A model generated the notes under the pieces. The model was given only the letters and a program-made list of their open reading frames with translations, was not told where the DNA came from and ran no database searches. A stretch of DNA of 64,000 bases from Grus americana (lineage: Eukaryota): assembly GCF_028858705.1 (NCBI RefSeq), contig NC_072852.1:200324471-200388470 (forward strand), written 5' to 3'. A program made the translations under genes and the position numbers. This document shows positions 27,964 to 61,257 of this stretch, in pieces. Every line of letters starts with the position of its first letter. Positions within the stretch are counted from its first letter, which is position 1.

Positions 27964-30425
27964 GATCATAGAATCATAGAATGGTTTGGGTTGGAAGGGA
28001 CCTTAAAGATCATCTAGTTCCAACCCCCCTGCCATGGGCAGGGACAACCTCCACTAGACCACATTGCCCAAAGCCTCATCCAGCCTGGTCTTAAACACTT
28101 CCAGGGATGGGGCCTCCACAACCTCTCTGGGCAACCCGTTCCAGTGCCTCACCACTCTAACAGTCAAGAATTTCTTCCTAATATCTAATCTAAATTGACC
28201 CTCCATCAGCTTAAACCCATTCCCCCTTGTCCTGTCACTACACTCCCTCATAAACAGTCCCTCACCATCTTTCCTGTAGGCCCCTTCAGGTACTGCTAAG
28301 CCGCAATTACATCTCCCCAGAGCCACCTTTTCTCCAGGCTGAACAATCCCAACTCTCTCAGCCTGTCCTCATAGGAGAGGCGCTCCAGCCCTCTGATCAG
28401 CTTCGTGGACCTCCTCTGGACTCTCTCCAACAGCTCCATGTCTCTCCTGTACTGGGGCCCCCAGAGCTGGACGCAGTACTCCAGGTGGGGTCTCACGAGA
28501 GCAGAGTAGAGGGGCAGGATCACCTCCCTCGACCTGCTGGTCACACCTCTTTTGATGCAGCCCAGGACACGGTTGGCTTTCTGGACTGCAAGCGCACACT
28601 GCAGGCTCATGTTGAGCTTCTCGTCCACCAACATCCCCCAAGTCCTTCTCCTCAGGGCTGCTTTCAATCCATTCCTCGCCCAGCCTATAGCTGTGCTTGG
28701 GATTGCGCCAACCCATGTGCAGGACCTTGCACTTGGCCTTGTTGAACTTCATGTGGTTTGCACGGGCCCACCTCTCCAGCCTGTCAAGGTCCCTCTGGGT
28801 GGCATCCCTTCCCTCCAGCATGTCGATCACACGACACAGCTTGGTGTCGTCGGCAAACTTGCTGAGGGTGCACTCGATCCCACTGTCCATGTTGCCAACA
28901 AAGATGTTGAACAGTGCCGGTCCCAGTACTGACCCCTGAGGAACGCCACTCATCACTGTTCTCCACTTGGACATTGAGCTGTTGACCACAACTCTTTGAG
29001 TGCGACCATCCAGCCAATTCCTTATCCACCAAGTGGTCTATCCATCGAATCCATGTCTCTCCAGTTTAGAGACAAGGATGTCGTGCGGGACAGTGTCAAA
29101 TGCCTTGCACAAGTCCAGGTAGATGACGTCAGCTGCCCATCCCTTATCCACCAACGCTGTAACCCCATCATAGAAGGCCACCAAATTTGTCAGGCACGAT
29201 TTGCCCTTAGTGAAGCTGTGTTGGCTGTCACCAATCACCTCCTTATCTTCCATGTGCCTGAGCATAGTCTCCAGGAGGGTCTGCTCCATAATCTTGCCAG
29301 GCATGGAGGTGAGACTGACCGGCCTGTAGTTCCCTGGGTCTTCCTTTTTACCCTTCTTAAAAATGGGGGTTATGTTCCCCCTCTTCCAGTCAGCGGGAAC
29401 TTCACCAGGCTGCCAGGACTTCTCAAATATGATGGAGAGCGGCCTGGCCACTTCATCCGCCAGTTCACTCAAGACCCGCGGATGCAACTCATCAGGTCCC
29501 ATGGACTTGTGCACCTTCAGGTTCCTTAGATATTCTCGAACCTGATCTTTTCCTACAGTGGGCGGTTCTGCATTCTCCCAGTCCCTGCCTTCTGTGACCT
29601 GGGCAGTGTGGCTCAAGCATTTGCCAGTGAAGACTGAGGCAACGAAGTCATTGAGTACCTCAGCCTTCTCCATATCCTGGGTAACCAGGTCACCCATTTT
29701 ATTCCGGAGGGGACCCACATTTTCCCTCATCCTCCTCTTATCACTAACATACCTATAGAAGCTTTTCTTGTTGTCCTTGACATCCCTGGCCAAACTAATT
29801 TCTGTCAGGGCTTTGGCTTTCCTAACCTGCTCCCTGGCTGCTCAGTTTCTCTGTATTCTTCCCAGGCTACCTGCCCTTGCTTCCACCCTCTGTAGGCTTC
29901 CTTTTTGTGTTGGAGTTTGCCCAGGAGCTCCTTGTTCATCCATGGGGGCCTCTTGGTGTTTTTGCTTGACTTCCTCTTTGCTGGGATGCCTTGCTCCTGA
30001 GCTTGGAGGAAGTGATCCTTGAATATTAGCCAGCTGTCTTGGGCTCCTCTTCCTTCTAGGGCTTTGTCCCATGGTATTCTACCAAGCAGATCCCTGAAGA
30101 GGCCAAAGTCTGCTCTCCTGAAGTCCAGGGTAGTGAGCTTGCTGTGCACCCTCCTCGCTGCCCTGAGGATCCTGAATTCCACCATTTCGTGGTCACTGCA
30201 GCCAAGGCTGCCCTTGAGCTTGACGTCCCCTACCAGGCCCTCCTTATTGGTGAGAATAAGGTCCAGCATGGCACCTCTCCTTGTGGGCTCCTCTGTCACT
30301 TGGAGGAGAAAGTTGCCATTGACACATTCCAGGAAATTCCTGGATTGCTTGTGCATGGCTGCGTTGTCCCTCCAGCAGATGTCGGGGTGGTTGAAGTCCC
30401 CCATAAGGACCAGGGCTTGTCATGG
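27964..30425 (-). mobile_element. CR1 (chicken repeat 1) LINE, 5'-truncated (about 2.46 kb) and degraded. It retains the end of the endonuclease domain ([10 protein letters not shown]), the reverse-transcriptase domain split over three frames, and the characteristic 3' tail ...cattctatgattctatgatc. It is sense-oriented relative to PARP4, inside a PARP4 intron.
   Basis: Minus-strand ORFs 29805-30404, 29038-29793 and 28369-28989 translate to CR1 ORF2 ([20 protein letters not shown]; [45 protein letters not shown]). The frameshifts between them indicate decay. The 3' octamer repeats ATTCTRTG are typical of avian CR1. Confidence 0.9.
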
Positions 30426-44890: not shown

Positions 44891-45356
44891 CTGTAAATAG
44901 AAAGAGCAAAGTTAGTCAAAGAAACTATATAGAGACTTAAAGAATCAATTTTATCAGATAGTGCTCTAACAGCTGACAATCCATACTTAACCTCTGGGTT
45001 GTGATTTAACAGCCTCCCAACAAGGCAGTGCTTTAATGAGGGTTCATGGGACACAAAGACCAAGCACACAGCTTCAAATACAAACCCCATAGTGACAAGA
45101 TAGGTTCATCTAAATGTATGCTGGAGTAACTTGTTCTGTCAGTTGAACTACTCAAAATTCACCCCGATACAGCTCCTTTGACTTGAATCTAATGTTGTTA
45201 CAATGACACAGACTGCAAGCGCTATACCAGAGTGCACACATAACTCGTATGCTGAGAAATGCATTTAAGCCGCTCTCAAGTCAAGCTTTGCTGGCTCTCA
45301 ATACGATGGCCAGAATATCACTTGCTATAGCATTTCAGCATTTCAACATGTCATCA

Positions 45357-46580
45357 TGGTGGGTGGCCTCCTATGATGGGGTTACAGCATCGGTGGATAA
45401 GGGAAGGGCAACTGACGTCATCTACCTGGACTTGTGCAAGGCATTTGACACTGTCTCGCATGACATCCTTGTCTCTAAATTGGAGAGACATGGATTTGAT
45501 GGATGGACCACTCAGTGGATAAGGAATTGGCTGGATGGTCGCACTCAAAGAGTTGTGGTCAACAGCTCAATGTCCAAGTGGAGAACAGTGATGAGTGGAA
45601 TTCCTCAGGGGTCAGTACTGGGACCGGCACTGTTCAACATCTTTGTCGGCGACATGGACAGTGGGATTGAGTGCACCCTCAGCATGTTTGCCCATGACAC
45701 CAAGCTGCGTGGTGTGGTCGACACTCTGGAGGGAAGGGATGCCATCCAGAGGGACCTGGACAGGCTGGAGAGGTGGGCCCGTGCAAACCACATGAAGTTC
45801 AACAAGGCCAAGTGCAAGGTCCTGCATGTGGGTCGGCGCAATCCCAAGCACAACTACAGGCTGGGCAGGGAATGGATTGAGAGCAGCCCTGAGGAGAAGG
45901 ACTTGGGGGTATTGATTGATGAGAAGCTCAACATGACCCGGCAGTGTGCGCTTGCAGTCCAGAAAGCCAACCGTGTCCTGGGCTGCATCAAAAGAGGCGT
46001 GACCAGCAGGTCGACGGAGGTGATCCTGCCCCTCTACTCTGCTCTCGTGAGACCCCACCTGGGGTACTGCGTCCAGCTCTGGGGGCCCCAGTACAGGAGA
46101 GACATGGAGCCGTTGGAGCGAGTCCAGAGGAGGACCACGAAGCTGATCAGAGGGCTGGAGCACCTCTCCTATGAGGACAGGCTGAGAGAGTTGGGATTGT
46201 TCAGCCTGGAGAAAAGAAGGCTCCAGGGAGATCTAATTGCAGCTTACCAGTACCTGAAGGGGGCCTACAGGAAAGATGGTGAGGGACTGTTTATGAGGGA
46301 GTGTAGTGACAGGACCAGGGGTAATGGGTTTAAGCTGAAGGAGGGTCGATTTAGATTAGATATTAGGAAGAAATTCTTTACTGTTAGAGTGGTGAGGCAC
46401 TGGAACAGGTTGCCCAGCGAGGTTGTGGAGGCCCCATCCCTGGAAGTGTTTAAGACCAGGCTGGATGAGGCTTTGGGCAATGTGGTCTAGTGGAGGGTGT
46501 CCCTGCCCATGGCAGGGGGGTTGGAACTAGATGATCTTTAAGGTCCCTTCCAACCCAAACCATTCTATGATTCTATGATC
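45357..46580 (+). mobile_element. CR1 LINE, 5'-truncated (about 1.2 kb), carrying an uninterrupted RT C-terminal ORF (about 377 codons, 45357-46487, ending at the native stop) followed by the CR1 3'UTR and (ATTCTRTG)2 tail. It is antisense to PARP4, in an intron.
   Basis: Plus ORF 45249-46490: ...[44 protein letters not shown]...[45 protein letters not shown]...[27 protein letters not shown]. It is about 88% amino-acid identical to the other CR1 copy. The 3' end is cattctatgattctatgatc. Confidence 0.9.
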
Positions 46581-47624: not shown

Positions 47625-49115
47625 CTGGAATGGAATCAGAGTAATTAAAATCACATACGCCCAGTAAATACTGTACTGTAACAGGCTGCAACATCATACT
47701 AAAGAAAGAAGTATGTAAAGAGATACATCTATTTTTCAGCAGCAAAATAACAACAAAAAAAGTTTTGAGAAATGAAATCCCACCCAAACAAGCTGTTGCA
47801 CTAACAGACCAGAATGTCTAGAGATAACCTGAAGATGAAAACTAGATTTCAATCTTCATTCCTTAGAAAAACTATGGAAGCAACACAATAAATCTGTTTT
47901 CATTGCCTGGTTACATGTTAATTTTTTAATAGCTTGGTCAGCTACCTGTGCTGTCTGAGGCCAATTCCTCCCTTATTCCTGATCTTCACATTCGGATATA
48001 TGCATGTAGTTATATGCTTCAGCATCAGGACTCTTAGACCAAGTCTAACTTCTAGTACATTCTCACAGAGTAACTAAATACCTACCCTATGACTGAACAG
48101 CAGTCTCTAAATGTGAAAGCTGCATTTTGTTAATAGATTTAAGAGTGTTGGAGCTGGTTCGGTTCTTTTAACTCAGTAATTAGAAACAGTTATAGCAATA
48201 CTGTTTCCTTATAAACAAAAAGCAGTCTCAGTTATCTTGATTTTCAGCTCTCCCAAGAATTTTCATAAAAGAAATTAATGCTCAGCACTTGTAAACACAA
48301 TGAATCAGACTGCATTGCACAAACCCATGTGAACCAACAAGAGAAAAAAAACTGTGATGATAAACAGGGCTCCAATCAGAAAATCATAAAGCTTAAGCCA
48401 TACTAATGCCTGCTGAGATAGTAGAAGCTTTGCATGTATTAGGGAGCCACATTATGAAGATAATGAGAGCCATCTACAGAAGTCACTGAAACAGATTAGG
48501 AAGTGTTGCTTTTTGTTTTGGGTGTTTTTTTTTTTTTCAATTTACAGAAGTATCAATATAGATGTATCAAAATATATCTTTTATTTTACCCAAGAGTCCC
48601 CACTTTGGACTCAGTTCTGCTCTTATTATCTTCAGTAACAGCAAGGTTGGAATCATTTTCATTTTTCTTTGTGGCATTTTTGTTTTCAGAAGATGACAGG
48701 TCTTCCACATCTGCAACCAAAACATTTATTTACTTGGTATAATATCTGGTTTCTCTAATTTAACTTACAAATAGTTAATAAAAACAATACTACTACTTAA
48801 TATTCATAAATATTTTACACATTGAAACAAGTTAACAGCTTCTAAGGTCACATTTTATTCAGCCATATAACTGTCAGGAGATGGAGACAAATATTGAAGG
48901 GCAATTGCCCCAACTGCCTGACGGCTAGAATTAGTACTGCCCCAGGCTATGCCAGTGCCTACTCCCTGCAGGCACTTCGGCAACCTGACTTCTGTGACAG
49001 GAAGGGGAAAAAGAATTAGGGCATGGAGCTGAGAGCTACACTGTGCGACTTGACCACAAAGCCTGAGAACTGTTCCTCCGTGGCTCACGATGGTTTTGGG
49101 CATTTTTGGTTGGTT

Positions 49116-49662
49116 GGTTGTGGTGTGGTTTAACCTGGCAGGACACAGCCGTTCGCTCACTCCCCCGCACAGTGGGATGGAGGAGAGAATCAGGAAAAAA
49201 AAGATAAAACTCATGGGTTGAGATGAAGACAGTTTAATATGACAGAAAAGGAAGATGATAATGATGATGATAATAATAAATAGAATATACAAAACTAGTG
49301 ATGCACAGCACAATTGCTCACCACTGTCAGACCATTGATGCCCAGCTAGTTTCTGTGCTGTGGTTCAAACCCCTGGCCAGCTTCCCCCAAATTATATATT
49401 GAGCATGACATCATATGGTATGGAATATCCCTTTGGCCAGTTTGGGTCAGCTGTCCTGCCCACGTCCCCTCCCAGCTTCTTGTGCACTCCCAGTCTACTC
49501 GCTGGGGCAGTGAGAGAAGCTGAAAAGTCCTTGACCTAGTGTAAACATTGCCTAGCAACGACCAGTTGTGTTATCAATGTTATTCTCATCCTAAATCCAA
49601 AACACAGCACTATACCTGCTACTAGGAAGAAAACTAACTCAATCCCTGCCAAAACCACGACA
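49116..49662 (+). mobile_element. Solo-LTR-like element (about 545 bp, TG...CA termini), copy A of a two-member family in this window. Probably an endogenous-retrovirus-derived LTR. It lies in a PARP4 intron and is followed by a (T)23 run at 49677-49699.
   Basis: About 80-85% identical over its full length to 53517-54047. It begins tgtggtttaacc and ends ...ccaaaaccacgaca. Internal shared blocks include atggaatatccctttggccagtttgggtcagctgtcctg and tccaaaacacagcactatac. Confidence 0.55.
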
Positions 49663-50731
49663 GGCTGGTTTGCCTCTTTTTTTTTTTTTTTTTTTTTTTA
49701 GTTCTATAAATATAGTATATGAATGCAGTTTTACTTTTAGCTTAAAACTATTTAGGATTGCTACTGACTGGATCTACCCAGCTTCAGTCATGCATGCCCG
49801 TGGCATCGGCTGTGCAAAACCAGATTTGTCTAAAAGACTCAATGACACAGCAAACATAAATGCATTGGTCCTGATTCTTATTCTTATACATAGTTCTGAA
49901 AATTGCACTGATTCATGACATAGAATCAGTTCATAAAATAAAATGTATTATGTAAAAAGTAACTACTTTTAAAAATACTTAAAGGAGAGACTGGCACCCA
50001 GCAAAATCTAAGAGATGCAAAAGTAAAAAAATTAAAAAGCATAGTTACTAGGAAAAAAGAAGAGAATTAAAACACTAATAACTTTCAGGATGATAATTTT
50101 TTTTGCTGACTGTACACATTAAATAGAATTATCTTTCTCTTTTTCATGTTCTTTGGCTTGTCTCACAGCATTAAATTGAACATTTGTCTTTTTTCCTTCT
50201 ACAAAGTTATAGTCTTTTGCATCTGAACCATGTTACGTATCGGAATGCTTGAAGTTCATCTATTTTAATTATGTTGTGCAATTATTTCTAGCCCATGTTA
50301 ACCTGTTCTCTAGCTATCCTATTTTCTCATAATTTTGACTTCAAAACATAACACTTCCTCATACAAAGGCATTGAAAACCCACTGTATTCTGTTGAAATT
50401 AAGTAAAACTTCCAGGTTACTGTAATTTTTTTTCCAGTGGAGTCAAATAAAGACAGTCATTGAAGTAGGTTTTGTTATTTTTAATATTTTATCCCCCTTT
50501 CCAACTTGAAGTCTTATTTGAAGTTTCATTAAAAGAAAAAAAAAAATCAATGGAAAGACTCCACAGAATGGAACTAATATTTCTTTCTGAAAAATTCTAA
50601 TTTTTTAATTAACTTTATTGCCAGTCTCCATGGTTGCTGATTTCTTAAAAGCTGATTCTAAATATTGATCTTCAAAAACATTCTTTCCCAAAGTAACTGG
50701 TAGATGAATAAACTATGTCAAATATACCTAC

Positions 50732-50927
50732 CCTGGCTGGCTGGCCTTTGGTCAGAAGTGTCGTCTTGTGATATATTAACCTTATATGCATCAATCTGTA
50801 AAAGCTTCCCCTTTTCAACTGATTTCCAAATGAAATCTGCACATATAACAGGGAGCTGATACTTCTGAATATTTTTTAGATCACGACAGCTGAGGACATC
50901 AGCAGTATCCACAAGAACATGTGTACT
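50732..50927 (-). CDS. PARP4: PARP4 exon: STHVLVDTADVLSCRDLKNIQKYQLPVICADFIWKSVEKGKLLQIDAYKVNISQDDTSDQRPASQ(G). The donor is at 50732 (gtaggt) or 50728 (gtatat).
   Basis: Acceptor ttgtctttcag. Matches human CTHIILDNADVLSQYQLNSIQKNHVHIANPDFIWKSIREKRLLDVKNYDPYKPLDITPPPDQKAS. Confidence 0.8.
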
Positions 50928-53516
50928 CTGAAAGACAAGTTACAATTACAGTTGCTATGCACACATAACTACAATATTAATCCAAATACTGTTTATTTGC
51001 AATTCATACTGGTACAATCCTAGAGTCAAAAGGAAACATTTAAAAACAGACAACCTTTTTGGACCGTATTTTAACTGAAACATCTAATTTAGAAACATGG
51101 TACCTCTGCACTTTGTCCACAGACAACAGAGAGAGCAGAATTCTCTCAGGTGACAGTTCAGCTCAACTAAAATACAGATATCTTCAGATTATGTCCACTT
51201 TTCCACAGTCACTACAAAGATATGAAGGTGATCCGGTGCCTAATGTTCTGTAGAGCTTCTAGCAGCACATAGGAGGTCCAATAATGGGACAAGTTCTGTT
51301 GTGGCCAACATGGTACAAACCCAAAGCTATCTGGGGTAAAAGCATTAAAAAAAGAAAAAAAAAAGCAGCTAGGCAGAATGCTGAATAATCATAATATGCT
51401 TTGGTAGCCTTATAAAGAATCACACATTGTTTTACTGCAATCATATATATGCTGAACATATATGTCTAGTTAGGACAAAATAAAAACATTTGTCAAATTT
51501 GAACAGAAGTCAAATCAAATAAAATGGTCGTAAGAGGCAGCGGATTTTGCACCTCTAACAGTTAACATTAAGCATGCAAGAACTGATGGACACAGATAAA
51601 CGAAAGGTTATTACATTAGAATGAAATTAGATCTACTTTACTCAGAAACAAGATGATAAATGCATGGTCTTTTATTTGTCACATATGGTAAAAGTGGAGC
51701 TTTAAAAAACAAGAGTGTTTCCCTGATCTAGCAGCACTGAGCCCTTATCTGTTCTGGGGTTCCCGTCTGGAGATAGATGAGACGCTTTCCAATCATAACA
51801 TAGCTTCTGAAGCTTGGGTAAGATTTACCCTGAACAGGTTGGCCACTTGTTAGCTGTTCTCAGCATCCTGGAGCTCACAAAATTTAGGTACTGAAATATC
51901 TCTCTTCCCACTGTATTTAAAAAGATTATTCAAAATACAGATTTCAATTAATACATATTTGTACTGCATTAACTCTTAGTTCATTTGCTGTTTTCAATAA
52001 TTAAATTCTTTTAGCAAAGCTTTTTTTAAAGCTTGTTGTTTTTAATTAGGCAATTTCCTTGACTTTTTTCCCCAAATCCTATCTGGAGATCAGCAGTTCG
52101 TGTGTCAACACATCTTGGAAGATCCTGAATTTACAGCACAAAGATATCTGTCACGTCTTTGGAATACTCTAGCTAGACTTTGATATGTTATTCTTCACTT
52201 TCTCTCCTAAACAGATGTGCATTGTCAGAGTCACCAGGAAACTGCTGGGCTCTGCATAAGATGATAACATACCTACAATATTCCTTTTCTTCACACACTC
52301 CTTTCCTTTTCCTTCAATGTCAACACCTTACTTATGCAGAATTTAAACCGCAGACTCTTGTGAACCACTTACACAATTTTTGATGTTTGTAAAATGACAG
52401 CCAACTATGGGAGCTATATATAGCAGTGGGATTTAAAGTAACTCACTCAATGTTATATTAGGAAATATTACACAAGAGAGGGAGAAATTAACTCACTTAA
52501 ACATACTCTTCTCCAAATTAAAAAAACTGTATATAGAGAATAAAAAAAAATTGAAATCATAATACAATGCATTACCCTTTCCCTAAGGTCAATTAGAAGT
52601 AAGCACTCTAATATGACAACATTCATGACCTTGCTGTAATTGCTAGCTATGGGAAGGAGGAAGTAAACGTCACTTTCTAGTGGCAGAAGTAACAAGGTAT
52701 TATGCCTCCACTATTAAGCTAGATAATGTTAGGTAATTCCCTGTCACTGGCACGTGAATACTTATATTGTTAAGGCATTAGCATGTCCCACGGCACACTT
52801 CAAGCTGCTGCCAACTCACATCCTCCCAGTTTCCAGGCGTGGTTTGGGAGACAGAATATCACCATGACTGTTCCTGTTAGGCAGTTTGTATGTGAACACT
52901 CAGTCCTGAAGACCAAGAGGGTTCAGCAGTATAGGTGTGGGCCAAGCCATGCCAGCTGGCCACGGTCCCTGCAAGCATTCCTAGGCATGTAATGTACCAG
53001 TATAGATGCAGCCCACTGATTTCACTGCTGTGCACATCATGCAAACAGGCTCCTTGATTTATCCATACTGCGTGTTCAACATATATTACAAACAACAAGC
53101 TGTATTTAAATAAAAAACCTGCAATATCACAGACTTCTAACTCTACAACCATCTTTTCCTCACTCTGTAATCAAAAGTTTGTGTTAACAATAACATAACC
53201 AAAACCCAATTCAGTGATGCATCTCATTCAGAATTTCTCTCATCCTCTCTGACAATGAGAGAAGAAAATCAGGATGGCAAATTTATCCAGGAAAAAAACC
53301 TCCCTGGTTCTTTTGTGGAGGGAGAATATTGCTCTTAATTTTTTATGTGACATTTCAGTACTACAGAACCAAATGCATTAAAAATGTAAACTGAATATTA
53401 TCTTTAAATATTGAACAGAGATATAATCTCTACAGTTCTTATTTCTCTACATGAGGGAAGATTAACACTCTACATACAACATTTGCATCTCTTGGTATTC
53501 TCCTACTTGTTGTGGT

Positions 53517-54047
53517 TTAACCCCAGCCAGTAACTAAACACCAAGCAGCCACTTGCTCACTGCTCTCCCCACCCAAGGGGATGAAAAGGAGAATGGAAAA
53601 AAACCCTCGTGGGTTGAGATAAAGAGAGTGTAATAGGATAACAAAGGAAGATGATAATAATAACAACAACAATAACAAAGTGATGCACAAATGCAATCGC
53701 TCACCACATGCCGAAGTAAAAAACCTAACCCACCCAATGCCAAGTCTGCAATCCCACCTCCTGGCTAGCTTCCCCAGTTATATAAGGAGCATGACGCGAT
53801 ATGGCAGGGAATACCCCTATGGCCAGCCAGGGTCAGCTGTCCTGGCTGTGCTCTCCCAGCTTCTTGTGCACCTGGCAGGGTGTGAGAAGCTGAAAAGTCC
53901 TTGACTTAGTGTAGACACAACAACTACCTAGCAACAACTAAAAAAAATTAGGGTGTTATCAACATTATTCTCATACTAAATCCAAAACACAGCACTATAC
54001 CAGCTACTAAAAAGAAAATTAACTCTAACTCAGCCAAAACCAGGACA
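53517..54047 (+). mobile_element. Solo-LTR-like element, copy B, same family and orientation as 49116-49662. It sits in PARP4 intron 2, ending only 34 bp from the exon-2 splice donor.
   Basis: Full-length similarity to copy A, TG...CA termini, and conserved internal blocks (atggcagggaatacccctatggccagccagggtcagctgtcctg; tccaaaacacagcactatac). Confidence 0.55.
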
Positions 54048-54081
54048 CTACTGAGATCTCAGAAATAAATCTGGAACTTAC

Positions 54082-54214
54082 CTTCTGATTAAGCACAAAA
54101 TTAACTACTCCACCGTTTTCTTTTATGGATGCTTTCAATCTACTCTTCTCCTGAATGGGTAAGTATTTTACTTTAATAAAGAACACACAGTTTGCAAAGA
54201 TTGCCATTGCCCTC
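54082..54214 (-). CDS. PARP4: PARP4 first coding exon (probable exon 2). ATG at 54207: MAIFANCVFFIKVKYLPIQEKSRLKASIKENGGVVNFVLNQK. The 7 nt of 5'UTR upstream of the ATG follow an acceptor.
   Basis: Matches the human PARP4 N-terminus MVMGIFANCIFCLKVKYLPQQQKKKLQTDIKENGGKFSFSLNPQ. The acceptor ttttctcttttaacag precedes GAGGGCAATGG and the donor is gtaagt. An upstream acceptor implies a non-coding exon 1 further 5' (the CpG island at 59 kb). Confidence 0.85.
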
Positions 54215-54740
54215 CTGTTAAAAGAGAAAAGTTTTTTGTTTTTTTTTTGGCTGAGAAAACTTTCATTCCCACTATCCACTTAAGTAGTCTCTCACCAAAT
54301 ATATTCTTTGCAACTCTAGGAAGTTCTAAAGCAAATCCCATTTTATTAGCATGGTAATCAAATCCACCCGGAACATCTCTTAATCAGTGTTGTTTTTTTT
54401 TTTTAAATTCTGTGGAAAATTTAGCATGACCTATGTTTTCAGTAAAGTCATGGCTTGAACTAAGAGCCAAACTCTTGTCTTGTTCTCTTGCTGCTAATAC
54501 CCACTTTTAGTAATGTGGAATTATCTTAATTTAGACTGGAACAAGCTCTTTCAGCTCCCCTTTCACATTGTACCATTACAAAATAACTCTTTTTCAAGAA
54601 TGTAAACTGCTTTTCATGTTTTCACTTACTGATTTATAATCTGTAAAAATATATATATGTATAAAAATATCCCACAGCATTTAAAAAGAACTTCGGAAAA
54701 CTGATCCAGATTAAACCCAACACAGCAACCTCTCTGCCTG

Positions 54741-57700: not shown

Positions 57701-59447
57701 TGAGGTACAACTGGAGAGCCTGGGCGTTGTGAGCAGGAAGGGCTACAACACACTCATACCTCTCTGTAAAATACCCAAAGGGACAGCAACCCAGTCAAAT
57801 AAATGAACCAAGCAAAGTGCAGTCTACTGCCCAATAAGGAGCAGTAACCCTTGCTGCACTTGGAAGGAGGAGGAAATTGTCACTGTTAAAGCACAAGTGA
57901 ACTTTGGAATACCTGACAGAGAGCAGGAAATTGAGTTAAAACCTGTTCAAAGTCCGTCCCCAGCAATTCTTCTCTCCCTTGAGTGAAGAAGATTCTATTC
58001 TCTTTCATTGTTGAGGAATGCTACCACTGAATAGTAGCCTCTCCTCCCCTATTTTCCTAGAGAACCAAGGAATTTTAGCAGTGTTTGGCTTTACTCTTTT
58101 TGAATGGCAGAATTTCCAAAATTCAAAATCAGAATAGAAAACTATTGTATTTAGTCTGTGTATTGAGAATTAATTAGCTGCTGATAAATACTTTTATAAC
58201 TGGAATACTTTGTTGTTGCAGCACCAGACATGGAAGTTATGCAAAGCGGAACTGCTGACAACTATCACTGGTTTAATTCTTACAATTTTAATTTATGTTG
58301 GTGAAGATCCATAAGGCCCCAGTAGCCTCAAAGGATTTCACACAAGCTTGTGTTCATGATCAAACCACAAATTCAACACCATTGTTAGCAATGACATATT
58401 TTTAGTGAAGAGAGGGAGCCAAAAATATTTTTTTATTGTTCAACAATAGACCACAAATAATCTGTAGCCCTGTAAGGCCTTCAGTGTGCAGGTAAACTGA
58501 AAACAAACCTCTACAGTATGTTCCTACTAAAAACGTCAAAAAGACAGAATGTGATGCTGTGCTTTAAAAAAAGCACAAGTACAAATCCTTTTATTTTCTA
58601 GCACAGTAGCTTATCAGCGTTAATACAGAATCCAGTCTGAGGACAATTATGTAGCCAACATATACGTAGACAATGTATTCATAACTGGCAAAACCAAAGC
58701 GCGGGCAAGATGATGGAAAGTTTAGCAGAAAGAGCCCTGTGAACTACAGATAACAGCAGAAATTAAAACTGGTAGTAGGCAACTGAAAGGGATGCCCTGG
58801 GTTTATACAGCCTAAAGCTCCGTTCTGTACCTGCCCACGCAGCCTGCGACGTACCACAAGTTTTTGGAGTGGGGTGCTCTGCCACTTACTGGAGTTTAGA
58901 GGAAAACACTAATTTCGCTCAGTAAGACAGAGCATGCCTAATGCACAAAACGTCAGAAAGCCAGGGGATGCTTTCTGCCCATGTATCTTCCTGTTCCTCC
59001 CTTACTGCAGCTACTTAGAAATTAAAAGGGTATAAGCAGCCGCAATACCAGCGCACTAGAAGTCCAAAGCCTCACCCCCGCAGACAACGCCACACCGCGA
59101 AAGGCTTGCGGACAGCTCGCTAGACAAGGATCTTCCCACACACCATGCCGGGACAGCCGCTGAAGAGCGCTGCGCGGGTACGGCCTTCCGCCTCTTGAGG
59201 AGAGGCGCTGCCCGAAGAGAAACTCCGTCTCCCAAAAGGGCCACCAGCGGCAACGCGGAGAGGACCCGGGAGCCGCCTCCACCTGCGGGGCGTCCTCAAG
59301 AGCGAGGGGCAGGCCCGGGTACCTGAAAGGATCCCCACCGCCTCTTCCCGCCCCGACAGCCCCGAGCAGGAACCGCGGAAGCAGCGGCTGCGGGCGCACT
59401 ACTTCACTGTTGATGCCCGTCAACGGCCTTTTCGCCACCGAGGCTCT

Positions 59448-59467
59448 TGGGAGCTGTAGTTCGAGCG
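59448..59467 (-). promoter_or_regulatory. ZNF143/Staf-binding-site-like motif (ACTACAGCTCCCAAGAGCC on the minus strand).
   Basis: It matches the extended SBS consensus ACTACAAxTCCCAGxAxxGC (ACTACA followed by TCCCA). It is in inverted orientation relative to the second site 60 bp away. Confidence 0.45.
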
Positions 59468-59510
59468 CCGAAACAACGCCTCCCAGCTGGGCGGGGAAGG
59501 CGGTGGGTTA

Positions 59511-59535
59511 GAACTACAGCTCCCAGCATGCTCGG
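59511..59535 (+). promoter_or_regulatory. ZNF143/Staf-binding-site-like motif (gAACTACAGCTCCCAGCATGCtcgg) on the plus strand.
   Basis: Near-perfect match to the extended SBS motif ACTACAxxTCCCAGCAxTGC that is common in bidirectional CpG promoters. Confidence 0.5.
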
Positions 59536-61257
59536 CGCCGGGGCGGTGCCCAGCCTGTGGCGCCGGGAGGCTGTGCGATGGCGGCAGGTTTGTAATAGAA
59601 GGCGAGGGGTGGTGGGCAGAGTGGAGTGTTGCTGCGGAAGCGGTCTGAGGAGCGGTGTAGGTGCTGCTTTCTCGGTATCTGTGAGGGCCCGTGGGTCGGA
59701 GCTGTTGCGGTGCGGGTGCCTTGGGGCCGGGGGAGCGGCGGGACGCTTCACTCCTCTGTGAGGGCGTCGTGGTGCCGCTGTCTGGGGCGATGTCCGTGTT
59801 CACGGGGGAAGGGAGGCGCCGAGCCTGGCCCCTCGGCTCGGCAGAGGAGCGTAGCTGTGCTCGTTTCCTTACCGGCGACCTTCGGGGGATCCCTTCGTCC
59901 CTCCTCGCCTTCGCGGGGCGGGTCAGCTTCAGCCCTGCAGGCTCTTTCGGTTGGCACGAAGGCGCTGCTGCCCTTAGACTCTAGGGGAAGCTTTAAACTG
60001 GCAGGCTGCCACGAAAGGGTTTCCAAAAGGTGACAATAGAAGTAGCGTCTGAACCCTGTGGGCTTGAATTTGCCTATACCTGTACCTCGCCGGGAGACTT
60101 CCAGTGGCGCCTCAAAATTGCAGGCAGTTGAAAAACATTTTTCTAGGTGAATTTCACTATTTCTCCTAGTCAAAGTTTCAAACTCCGGTTGAAAGCATAA
60201 GCCCTTTTACCGCAGGGAAAATGAAGCGAGAGCTGGCATGAACCGATGATCTCTTGGGAACAAGGAAGCCCTAAGCAGTTATTTCCTGATCAGCAGGCCT
60301 GTGGAGCCTGGGCTGCTGTGCTTGTCTGTCCTGTGTCCCCTGGCCCCTTCTTTCCTCTCTGTTCCCTGTGACACGCCACGTGCACAGGCAGGGAGTGAAC
60401 TGCCCTGGGACTAGTGTGAGGCAGCAGGGCTGAGTGGTCAGGGTCTGGCTTGCCACATCAGCAGCAGTTCTTTTTTTCCTCCTAAGTGAGGAAGTCACTT
60501 TGGGTCTCCTACCTACCTGAATTCATTCATGTTTTATGACACTTGCAAGAATTTAGTTATCGCTGAAAGTTTTGCAGTCTTCAAACTTTCTTTTTTTTGG
60601 ATGGATTAAAAAAAAAGAAGCTGGTTGGGAGGAAGAACTAACAGGCGGCATGGTTGTAGAGTTTCCATGAGAAACTAAGGAAGACATGACAATAATAAGT
60701 GCTGCACTGAAACGTGCAGTAAAATGTTTGTATTTAGATGCACATATTTGAAACTTTCTGTTAATACGAAGGTCCTATGAGGGAAGTTTGTCTTTCAATT
60801 CCTCAAATCACCTCTCTTCTTTTGTTGCAGGCACTTTAAAAAAATTCCGAATCCCTCTCTGTACTCTTGAAGAGAATATTATACACAGCTTTATAATATT
60901 TGAGATAATACTAGCTGCGTTCAAATAAATAATAAGATTAAAAGTTGGATTATGTTGACTTCCTGTACAGAAAGTGTTTGTTACTAGTTGTCCAAATTGT
61001 TTCTATTGCCTAGGGAAAAGTAGATTGTGACTGATTTTTATAAATACACTAAGTTGGTTACAAGAGAGTAACTTTCTTTTACTGGGAGTCCGTTACTGTA
61101 GATTTCTTATTTTGTTTATCTGCTTAATTTCTAGGTGCTGAAAGTAGGTAACCATCCACACCAAATACCTGGAACTTTGAAAGTGTCCTAACGCTACATA
61201 ACGTAATATTGTTATGTTAATGCTACATCAGCAAATAAATTGGATACAATACACAAG

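Follow-up and report, generated by a model that had tools for sequence, protein, structure and literature searches.

Two solo LTRs of a dispersed retroviral family in introns 2 and 3 of a bird PARP4 gene

The PARP4 locus and the two repeats

The window, that is, the whole 64-kb stretch of DNA analysed here, carries the gene PARP4 on its minus strand. Exon 2 (54082 to 54214, minus strand) was read from the sequence and matched by tblastn and by the Pfam BRCT domain. The start codon lies within it at 54207-54205, its donor GT occupies minus-strand positions 54081-54080, and its predicted acceptor was placed from ttttctcttttaacag. Exon 3 (50732 to 50927, minus strand), identified by sequence reading, tblastn and Pfam, encodes the second half of the BRCT domain, lies between the two repeats described below, and is kept in the orthologous contigs.

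Each of the introns that flank exon 3 contains one copy of a repeat. Copy B (53508 to 54047, minus strand, 540 bp) lies in intron 2 and copy A (49121 to 49662, minus strand, 542 bp) in intron 3; both were delimited by blastn and by MAFFT alignment to each other and to further copies of the family, and their termini were fixed by the ends of those family copies. On the sense strand, copy B starts with TGTCCTGGTTTTGG at 54047 (intron position +35) and runs to a 3' end at 53508, with exon 3 a further 2580 nt downstream. Copy A starts with TGTCGTGGTTTTGG at 49662, 1069 nt past the exon-3 donor along the gene, and runs to a 3' end at 49121. The distance of 34 nt between copy B and the exon-2 donor, given in the first-pass annotation of this DNA, was thus reproduced with the LTR end at 54047 and the GT at 54081-54080. 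Its outer limits were partly right: the ends at 49662 and 54047 stand, but the start at 49116 took in a 5-bp duplication, and the start at 53517 lost 9 bp of the element.

When copy A was searched against the 64-kb window with blastn, copy B was retrieved at E = 3e-65 and no third copy was found. The two can be aligned end to end, with 75.2% identity at aligned positions and 98 gap columns, and the identity reported by blastn was 70% over 546 columns. The presence of two related elements of the same orientation, about 540 bp each and about 4.4 kb apart, was thereby confirmed, and the pairwise alignment on which that proposal was to stand or fall holds over the full length. The identity of 80-85% proposed earlier is found within conserved blocks only, and the overall value is about 75%.

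Both copies have the TG...CA termini that had been noted before. The sense strand of copy A reads TGTCGTGG...CACACCA and that of copy B reads TGTCCTGG...CACAACA. The flanks were compared with each other and with orthologous contigs, and a target-site duplication of 5 bp, within the range of 4-6 bp suggested for the search, was found for each copy. For copy B, CTACT on the plus strand (AGTAG on the minus strand) stands on the donor side at 54048-54052 and recurs as CTACT on the far side at 53503-53507, a 5/5 match. For copy A, GGCTG on the plus strand (CAGCC on the minus strand) stands on the gene-upstream side at 49663-49667 and matches at 4/5 the GGTTG (CAACC on the minus strand) on the gene-downstream side at 49116-49120.

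The internal motifs stand on the sense strand in the order expected of a putative U3-R-U5 layout, TATATA and then a candidate polyadenylation hexamer. TATATA stands at LTR position 265 in copy A and 264 in copy B, and the hexamer is ATTAAA at position 425 in copy A and a degenerated ATTACA at position 414 in copy B. The family consensus in sense orientation contains CATATAAAG, followed by ATTAAA. Relative to this consensus, neither copy shows an APOBEC-like excess of G-to-A changes. Since the gene and the sense strands of both LTRs are all on the minus strand, the earlier description of the elements as antisense to PARP4 has to be reversed. The idea that they could drive antisense transcription across the PARP4 5' region was wrong because it rested on that orientation.

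A (T)23 mononucleotide run does follow copy A at 49677-49699, as had been stated, but it is unrelated to the element. At the same place, orthologous contigs without the LTR carry A14 (L121) or A10 (L124) on the gene strand. The tract is therefore older than the insertion, an ancestral microsatellite of the intron that lies outside the LTR.

The dispersed family and its retroviral class

A search with one conserved motif recovered at least 120 loci of the family in bird-derived contigs, many of which span positions 1-540 of copy B at 70-78% identity. Among the 46 copies with both ends present, a 5-bp target-site duplication was perfect in 13 and had one mismatch in another 13, and perfect duplications of 4 or 6 bp were found in none. 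In four copies (L008, L068, L071 and L075), the polypurine tract ATGGAATAAGGGGTGGA stands directly 5' of the TGTCCTGG end. In a blastn search with the consensus ends, the ...AACCACAACA end at three loci (L104, L072 and L100, in four locus records, as L022 duplicates L100) is followed by GTCCTTTT and then by a primer-binding site. That of L104 is a perfect TGGCGCCCAACGTGGGGC, the tRNA-Lys1,2 primer-binding site (PMC1084362, PMC8775094).

The family also has internal coding remnants, an RNase H (Pfam PF00075, E = 3e-7) and an integrase ORF of 217 aa (Pfam rve, E = 5e-15). At L075, a single degenerate locus, the integrase ORF lies about 500 bp upstream of the 3' LTR on the same strand. The LTR of L075 was matched by neither copy A nor copy B in blastn, and what ties it to the family is the shared termini, the polypurine tract and an upstream stretch of 226 bp that is homologous to L071. 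The primer-binding site, polypurine tract, RNase H and integrase all come from copies of another bird, outside the window. A six-frame motif search of the 120 loci for reverse transcriptase and protease signatures returned only two weak protease-like matches, ill-placed relative to the LTRs. Two exact-motif scans of viral contigs gave no match, nor did ARAGORN and Rfam on the window. L031, with two same-orientation LTRs 7.5 kb apart, was considered as a full provirus and rejected: it contains no retroviral ORFs and is probably a pair of solo LTRs.

The closest solved relatives of the integrase are prototype foamy virus (PFV) integrases (E = 6e-14), and the integrases of HTLV, SIV and HIV matched at E = 3e-6 or worse; this pol comparison draws on one degraded integrase ORF of another bird, with no reverse transcriptase recovered. 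The RNase H fragment, compared with solved structures, gave no match that bears on the class. In the curation of avian LTRs, ERV3/L elements are recognised by a 5-bp duplication (PMC6523648). From the length of the duplication and this single degraded ORF, the family would be placed in class III, of the ERV3/ERVL type as Repbase uses the term, and appears spumavirus-like.

It is improbable, though not to the point of neglect, that the copies are instead solo LTRs of an ERVK family (class II, betaretrovirus-like). ERVK, betaretroviruses, MPMV and SERV typically carry a tRNA-Lys1,2 primer-binding site. ERVK solo LTRs are plentiful in some birds (PMC11009239). The 6-bp duplication by which ERV2/ERVK elements are recognised, however, was perfect in 0 of the 46 copies, whereas a 5-bp duplication, perfect or with one mismatch, was present in 26, and no other solved retroviral integrase comes nearly as close to that of the family as the foamy-virus one. 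Foamy viruses use a tRNA-Lys1,2 primer-binding site too.

Among known systems, the avian ERV3/ERVL-superfamily LTRs of Neoaves in Repbase and Dfam (for example, the TguERVL type, PMC6523648) share with the present family the TG...CA ends, the 5-bp duplication, an LTR length near 550 bp and the predominance of solo copies, as well as an internal pol with RNase H and integrase and, from the one locus that shows it, a gap of only about 500 bp between integrase and 3' LTR. Identity is about 75% between copies A and B and between each of them and the consensus of the other bird, so that they probably belong to species- or lineage-specific subfamilies. The mammalian ERV-L elements (HERV-L and MuERV-L, with the MT and MT2 LTRs) share the putative class III affinity, the 5-bp duplication and, as the gap of about 500 bp at L075 would suggest, probably the lack of env; ERV-L in the strict sense, however, takes its name from a primer-binding site complementary to tRNA-Leu, and the family described here has the tRNA-Lys1,2 type. 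The mammalian LTRs are well-known promoters once co-opted (PMC5538554), a use that would be hypothetical for the present family, and they show no sequence similarity to its LTRs. Spumaviruses, represented by prototype foamy virus, share the closest solved integrase, but they are exogenous, with env and accessory genes and much longer LTRs, whereas this family is endogenous and consists mostly of solo LTRs. The passerine ERVK solo LTRs (PMC11009239) are likewise avian, formed by LTR-LTR recombination and accompanied by a Lys-type primer-binding site; they differ in their 6-bp duplications, and the integrase of the present family is not betaretrovirus-like.

Empty orthologous sites and the origin of the copies

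A protein search with the N-terminus of PARP4 returned only short single-exon ORF fragments, and these led to contigs of three further bird sources that are orthologous to this DNA. The contigs align at 82-89% up to the edges of both LTRs, and comparison of the loci revealed that neither site is occupied. L121 and L124 have the 5-mer once and no LTR at the A site and the B site alike. Four further contigs (L122, L123, L125 and L126) cover the B site only and are empty there. The B site carries a single AGTAG in L121 and L124-L126 and AGTGG in L122, and the A site of the orthologous contigs has a related 5-mer in one copy. The 3.8 kb between copies A and B consist of host intron and PARP4 exon 3, and they can be aligned throughout, at 82-88%, to birds without either LTR.

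Two solo LTRs so close together had been thought to be remnants of one provirus-sized event or of separate insertions. Given the empty orthologous sites and the host DNA between the copies, we conclude from the alignments that each copy is a solo LTR in its own right, inserted independently and in this lineage, and that the pair does not go back to one provirus. A single old provirus, with the copies as its 5' and 3' LTRs and an interior that decayed or was replaced, is refuted by the empty sites and the separate duplications, even though the copies share their orientation and their spacing of about 4.4 kb is close to the size of a provirus. A matching 5-bp duplication of its own flanks each copy, and the outer flanks of the pair are unlike (AGTAG versus CAACC). 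Moreover, the interval that should be proviral holds an exon of the host, and an identity of 75% is too low for LTRs that would have been identical at an integration after the split from the lineages with empty sites. The introns of those lineages differ from the window's by 11-18%, and as both insertions are younger than the split, this low identity suggests that their source elements were already diverged.

A non-LTR origin, whether SINE, CR1 fragment or local segmental duplication, is likewise refuted by the features of the family. The long T run near copy A could be mistaken for an opposite-strand poly(A) tail, but that run is ancestral. The TG...CA ends and the 5-bp duplications, together with the primer-binding site, polypurine tract, RNase H and integrase of the family, are not those of such repeats; the CR1 copies of the window are unrelated in sequence; and the flanking DNA of one copy is not repeated around the other. 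The identification of both copies as solo LTRs, already favoured in the first-pass annotation, is upheld because of their TG...CA ends, their separate 5-bp duplications, a family with primer-binding site, polypurine tract and pol, and the empty sites.

Taken as a whole, copies A and B very probably go back to separate insertions of one dispersed class III, spumavirus-like family of endogenous retroviruses, each preserved as a solo LTR. In the lineage of this bird, a provirus would have entered a PARP4 intron, once for each copy, and duplicated a 5-bp target. Its two LTRs would then have recombined, with loss of the interior and of one LTR, so that a single LTR was left between the duplications. 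Both LTRs share the transcriptional orientation of PARP4 on the minus strand, where they would read U3-R-U5, and they are most likely neutral passengers of its introns.

Possible consequences for PARP4

As both LTRs are sense-oriented, they might act on PARP4 itself, either as an internal promoter that yields 5'-truncated transcripts or as a splice acceptor with a polyA trap that yields BRCT-only transcripts. We consider this improbable, and slightly less probable than the ERVK assignment. On its side, the TATA-like box (TATATA, positions 264/265) is kept in both LTRs, the ATTAAA signal is kept in copy A, and near the LTR 5' end an acceptor-like pyrimidine tract is followed by AG (TTTTCTTTTTAG in copy B and TTTTCTTCCTAG in copy A); solo LTRs of birds can be active in cis-regulation (PMC11009239). 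However, these motifs belong to the family consensus and give no sign of selection, the hexamer of copy B has decayed to ATTACA, and intronic solo LTRs are mostly inert. Because the insertions are lineage-specific, conservation offers no measure in this case. The specific forms of such an effect, in which copy A would trap PARP4 transcripts after exon 3 to give a short BRCT-only isoform, or either LTR would serve as an internal promoter that skips the exon with the start codon, are a little less probable still. If one of them were true, a lineage-specific insertion would have changed the output of a vault PARP gene in this bird; the copies would gain functional interest only if LTR-driven or LTR-terminated PARP4 isoforms appeared in transcript data.

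We presume that neither copy has a current function. Solo LTRs account for 93-98% of the total LTR length in birds (PMC11009239), and those in introns are commonplace. The two copies are real but ordinary. The main value of the analysis lies in its corrections, namely, the sense orientation, the independent insertion, the lineage specificity and the unrelated T tract. Both insertions could be used as presence/absence markers for the phylogeny of this bird's lineage.

Placement of two related LTRs in PARP4 introns

Within 48900-54400, two matching blocks in the same orientation lay ~4.4 kb apart, and a direct-repeat search resolved four collinear blocks shared by the two, with 77-92% identity. 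When the copy in intron 3 (copy A) was used as the blastn query against the whole window, the copy in intron 2 (copy B) was recovered with E = 3e-65 and 70% identity over 546 columns, and no third copy was found in the 64-kb window. The two could also be aligned end to end with MAFFT. The repeat is genuine and far above chance, and the pair of related same-orientation elements proposed by the first-pass annotation was thus borne out. The 80-85% mutual identity given there was overstated, being true of conserved blocks only; in the family alignment the copies agreed at 75.2% of aligned positions (370/492), with 98 gap columns.

The boundaries were set by the terminal motifs of the LTR family, which placed copy A at 49121-49662 (542 bp) and copy B at 53508-54047 (540 bp), both with the sense strand on the minus strand. 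Both carried the TG...CA termini described earlier. The earlier ends at 49662 and 54047 were right, whereas the start of A had included the target-site duplication (TSD) and that of B was 9 bp short. The search for flanking TSDs, suggested as a check, revealed one of 5 bp at each copy, perfect for B (CTACT at 53503-53507 and 54048-54052) and matching at 4/5 positions for A (GGTTG at 49116-49120, GGCTG at 49663-49667).

With a human PARP4 sequence as the tblastn probe, 28 collinear matches were obtained on the minus strand, from 54207 down to 5072. Independently of this probe, BRCT, PARP catalytic, VIT and VWA domains were found in the translated exons, and the best solved relative of the catalytic part was PARP4 (E = 4.6e-129; PARP2, 3e-19). 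Exon 2 spans 54214-54082 (minus strand), with the ATG at 54207, the donor GT at 54081-54080 and the acceptor deduced from ttttctcttttaacag; exon 3, read from the sequence, spans 50927-50732 (minus strand). In intron 2, the first base of copy B is at position +35, confirming the reported 34 bp from the exon-2 donor; in intron 3, copy A begins 1069 nt past the exon-3 donor. PARP4 and the two LTRs share the minus strand, so the LTRs are in sense orientation, not antisense as had been claimed. About 5 kb upstream of exon 2, a G+C-rich island at 59000-60500 (52-67% GC vs ~36% around it) probably represents the CpG-island promoter of PARP4 together with non-coding exon 1.

Retroviral features and classification of the LTR family

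Viral contigs, scanned twice for exact motifs, gave no match. In metagenome contigs, the pattern GGACAGCTGACCC, a gap of 30-36 bases and then GTCATGCTC detected at least 120 loci; two or three JGI samples, the long contigs of which are evidently bird host DNA, supplied nearly all of them. Loci L001-L120 (samples Ga0065711, Ga0181612 and Ga0065710), as well as L125 and L126, are on 'metagenome' contigs of up to ~100 kb of vertebrate (bird) host DNA; the contigs of these samples carry >100 copies of the LTR family and include one orthologous to PARP4 introns 2-3. In 1.1 Mb of those loci, A and B gave 287 blastn matches, many of which span B 1-540 or A 1-520 at 70-78% identity, indicating that the element ends are common to the family. 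Among 46 copies with both termini, 13 had a perfect 5-bp flanking TSD and 13 more had one mismatch, while a perfect in-register 4-mer or 6-mer was found in none of the 46. The family therefore makes 5-bp duplications. In avian LTR superfamilies, a TSD of 5 bp is the criterion for ERV3/L, 4 bp for ERV1 and 6 bp for ERV2/K (PMC6523648).

Four loci (L008, L068, L071 and L075) lacked a TSD; in each, the TGTCCTGG end was immediately preceded by the same purine-rich stretch, ATGGAATAAGGGGTGGA, the polypurine tract that a 3' LTR should have on its upstream side. In L075, a 217-aa ORF on the same strand, ~500 bp before this LTR, matched the Pfam integrase core domain (E = 4.9e-15). Its best solved relatives were prototype foamy virus integrase (E = 6e-14 to 5e-12), followed by the HTLV-2, SIV and HIV integrases (E = 3e-6 or worse). 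The L075 LTR beside the integrase was unmatched by A or B in blastn; what ties that LTR to the family is its polypurine tract, its shared termini and a 226-bp stretch of homology, upstream of it, with L071, the LTR of which aligned to B over the full length.

At three further loci, L104, L072 and L100 (L022 and L100 are identical in sequence, hence three and not four), the ...AACCACAACA terminus was followed by GTCCTTTT and a leader common to all three. In L104, the 18 bases after GTCCTTTT are exactly TGGCGCCCAACGTGGGGC, the primer-binding site complementary to tRNA-Lys1,2 (PMC1084362; PMC8775094). This site begins 9 nt past the LTR end, after the 8-nt spacer, an arrangement kept in the three loci (L104 537-562; L072 12319 onward; L100 2403 onward). 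An RNase H domain was found downstream of the leader in L072 (Pfam PF00075, E = 3e-7). In L072 and L100, only 1-2 kb separates the 5' LTR from the RNase H and integrase remnants, indicating proviruses with large internal deletions. The 575-bp family consensus contains CATATAAAG and, ~190 nt on, ATTAAA, the order expected for U3-R-U5. All these sequence features are concordant with a sense strand running from TGTCCTGGTTTTGG to GGTTAAACCACAACA, the minus strand in the window.

By behaviour and by the tests applied, copies A and B are ERV solo LTRs; the solo-LTR observation was correct but ordinary. Membership of the ERV3/L superfamily is favoured by the foamy-like integrase and by the 5-bp length of the duplication. 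ERV-L has a tRNA-Leu primer-binding site, whereas the family here has a tRNA-Lys one, which counts against a strict ERV-L label. Assignment to ERVK is disfavoured, as none of the 46 family copies had a perfect 6-bp duplication.

Empty orthologous sites and independent insertion

When the 107-aa product of exons 2 and 3 was used as a protein query, all matches were short ORF fragments over exon 3. Three fragments led to contigs of 2.9-7.8 kb from six samples, representing three sequence types (L121, L122/L123 and L124/L125/L126), with 82-89% identity to the window on either side of each LTR. The alignments break off at 54048 and restart at 53507 at the B site, and break off at 49684-49688 and restart at 49119-49120 at the A site. 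The B site reads TCTCAGTAGGAAAATA in L121 and L124-L126, with a single AGTAG and no LTR, and TCTCAGTGGGAAAATA in L122; the A site without the LTR reads GGCAAACGAACCAAAG in L121 and GGCAAATCAAGCAACC in L124. In this comparison of orthologous bird loci, which had been recommended, both sites are empty, so each LTR was inserted within the lineage of the window species. The full A-B interval can be aligned to the orthologous contigs and includes PARP4 exon 3, and thus is not a provirus interior. Of the two origins offered by the first-pass annotation, one provirus-sized event fails because the interval is host DNA, and independent insertions stand.

Total intron divergence at the split preceding both insertions was 11-18%. 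As the insertions are later than this split, a divergence of 25% with many indels is out of reach for copies that were identical at the start. Most likely, A and B would come from already diverged source elements, i.e. different subfamilies. A variant R region, TTATCATCTTCCTTT, is common to A and B and absent from the other bird's consensus. No APOBEC-like G-to-A excess was found in A or B.

The T run beside A (A23 on the gene strand) is A14 or A10 in the LTR-less contigs L121 and L124, respectively. This run at 49677-49699, 23 bases in the window vs 14 and 10, is an ancestral intronic microsatellite expanded in the window lineage; an LTR or retroposon tail was ruled out by the shorter run in those contigs. 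Relative to window ~52487-52503 in intron 2, ~860 bp extra is present in L124 (2719-3577) and L125 (2866-3724), probably another lineage-specific insertion; L126 ends nearby. Smaller extra segments occur in L121, ~78 bp near window 52100 and ~150 bp near 48450.

Proposed history and possible activity

We propose that two class III (ERV3/ERVL-type) proviruses integrated separately into PARP4 introns 2 and 3, that recombination between the two LTRs of each provirus left a solo LTR, and that both solo LTRs would have remained in the introns as neutral DNA. Recombination is suggested by what is now seen at each site, one LTR with matching duplications at its edges and host DNA beyond them. Such reduction is the rule in birds, where solo LTRs make up 93-98% of LTR length (PMC11009239).

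Given the sense orientation, the LTR motifs might instead act on PARP4, either as a splice-and-polyadenylation trap or as a promoter inside the gene. A TATA-like box is retained in both copies, A keeps ATTAAA (ATTACA in B), and both have an acceptor-like TTTTCTT(C/T)(C/T)TAG near the 5' end (sense positions ~25-36), which might serve as a cryptic 3' splice site where an intronic copy is in sense orientation. However, the acceptor-like motif is also in the family consensus, as are the TATA-like and polyA-signal motifs, and we regard such activity as very improbable next to neutral retention. On the gene strand, the acceptor-like pyrimidine tract and AG lie at 54012-54023 in B (TTTTCTTTTTAG) and 49627-49638 in A (TTTTCTTCCTAG).

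Two CR1-type LINE fragments with reverse-transcriptase ORFs also lie in the window, one on the minus strand (28054-30404) and one on the plus strand (45249-46490). The ORF of the latter is uninterrupted over 413 aa, suggesting a fairly young copy. Each CR1 region matches ~60 bird-derived loci.
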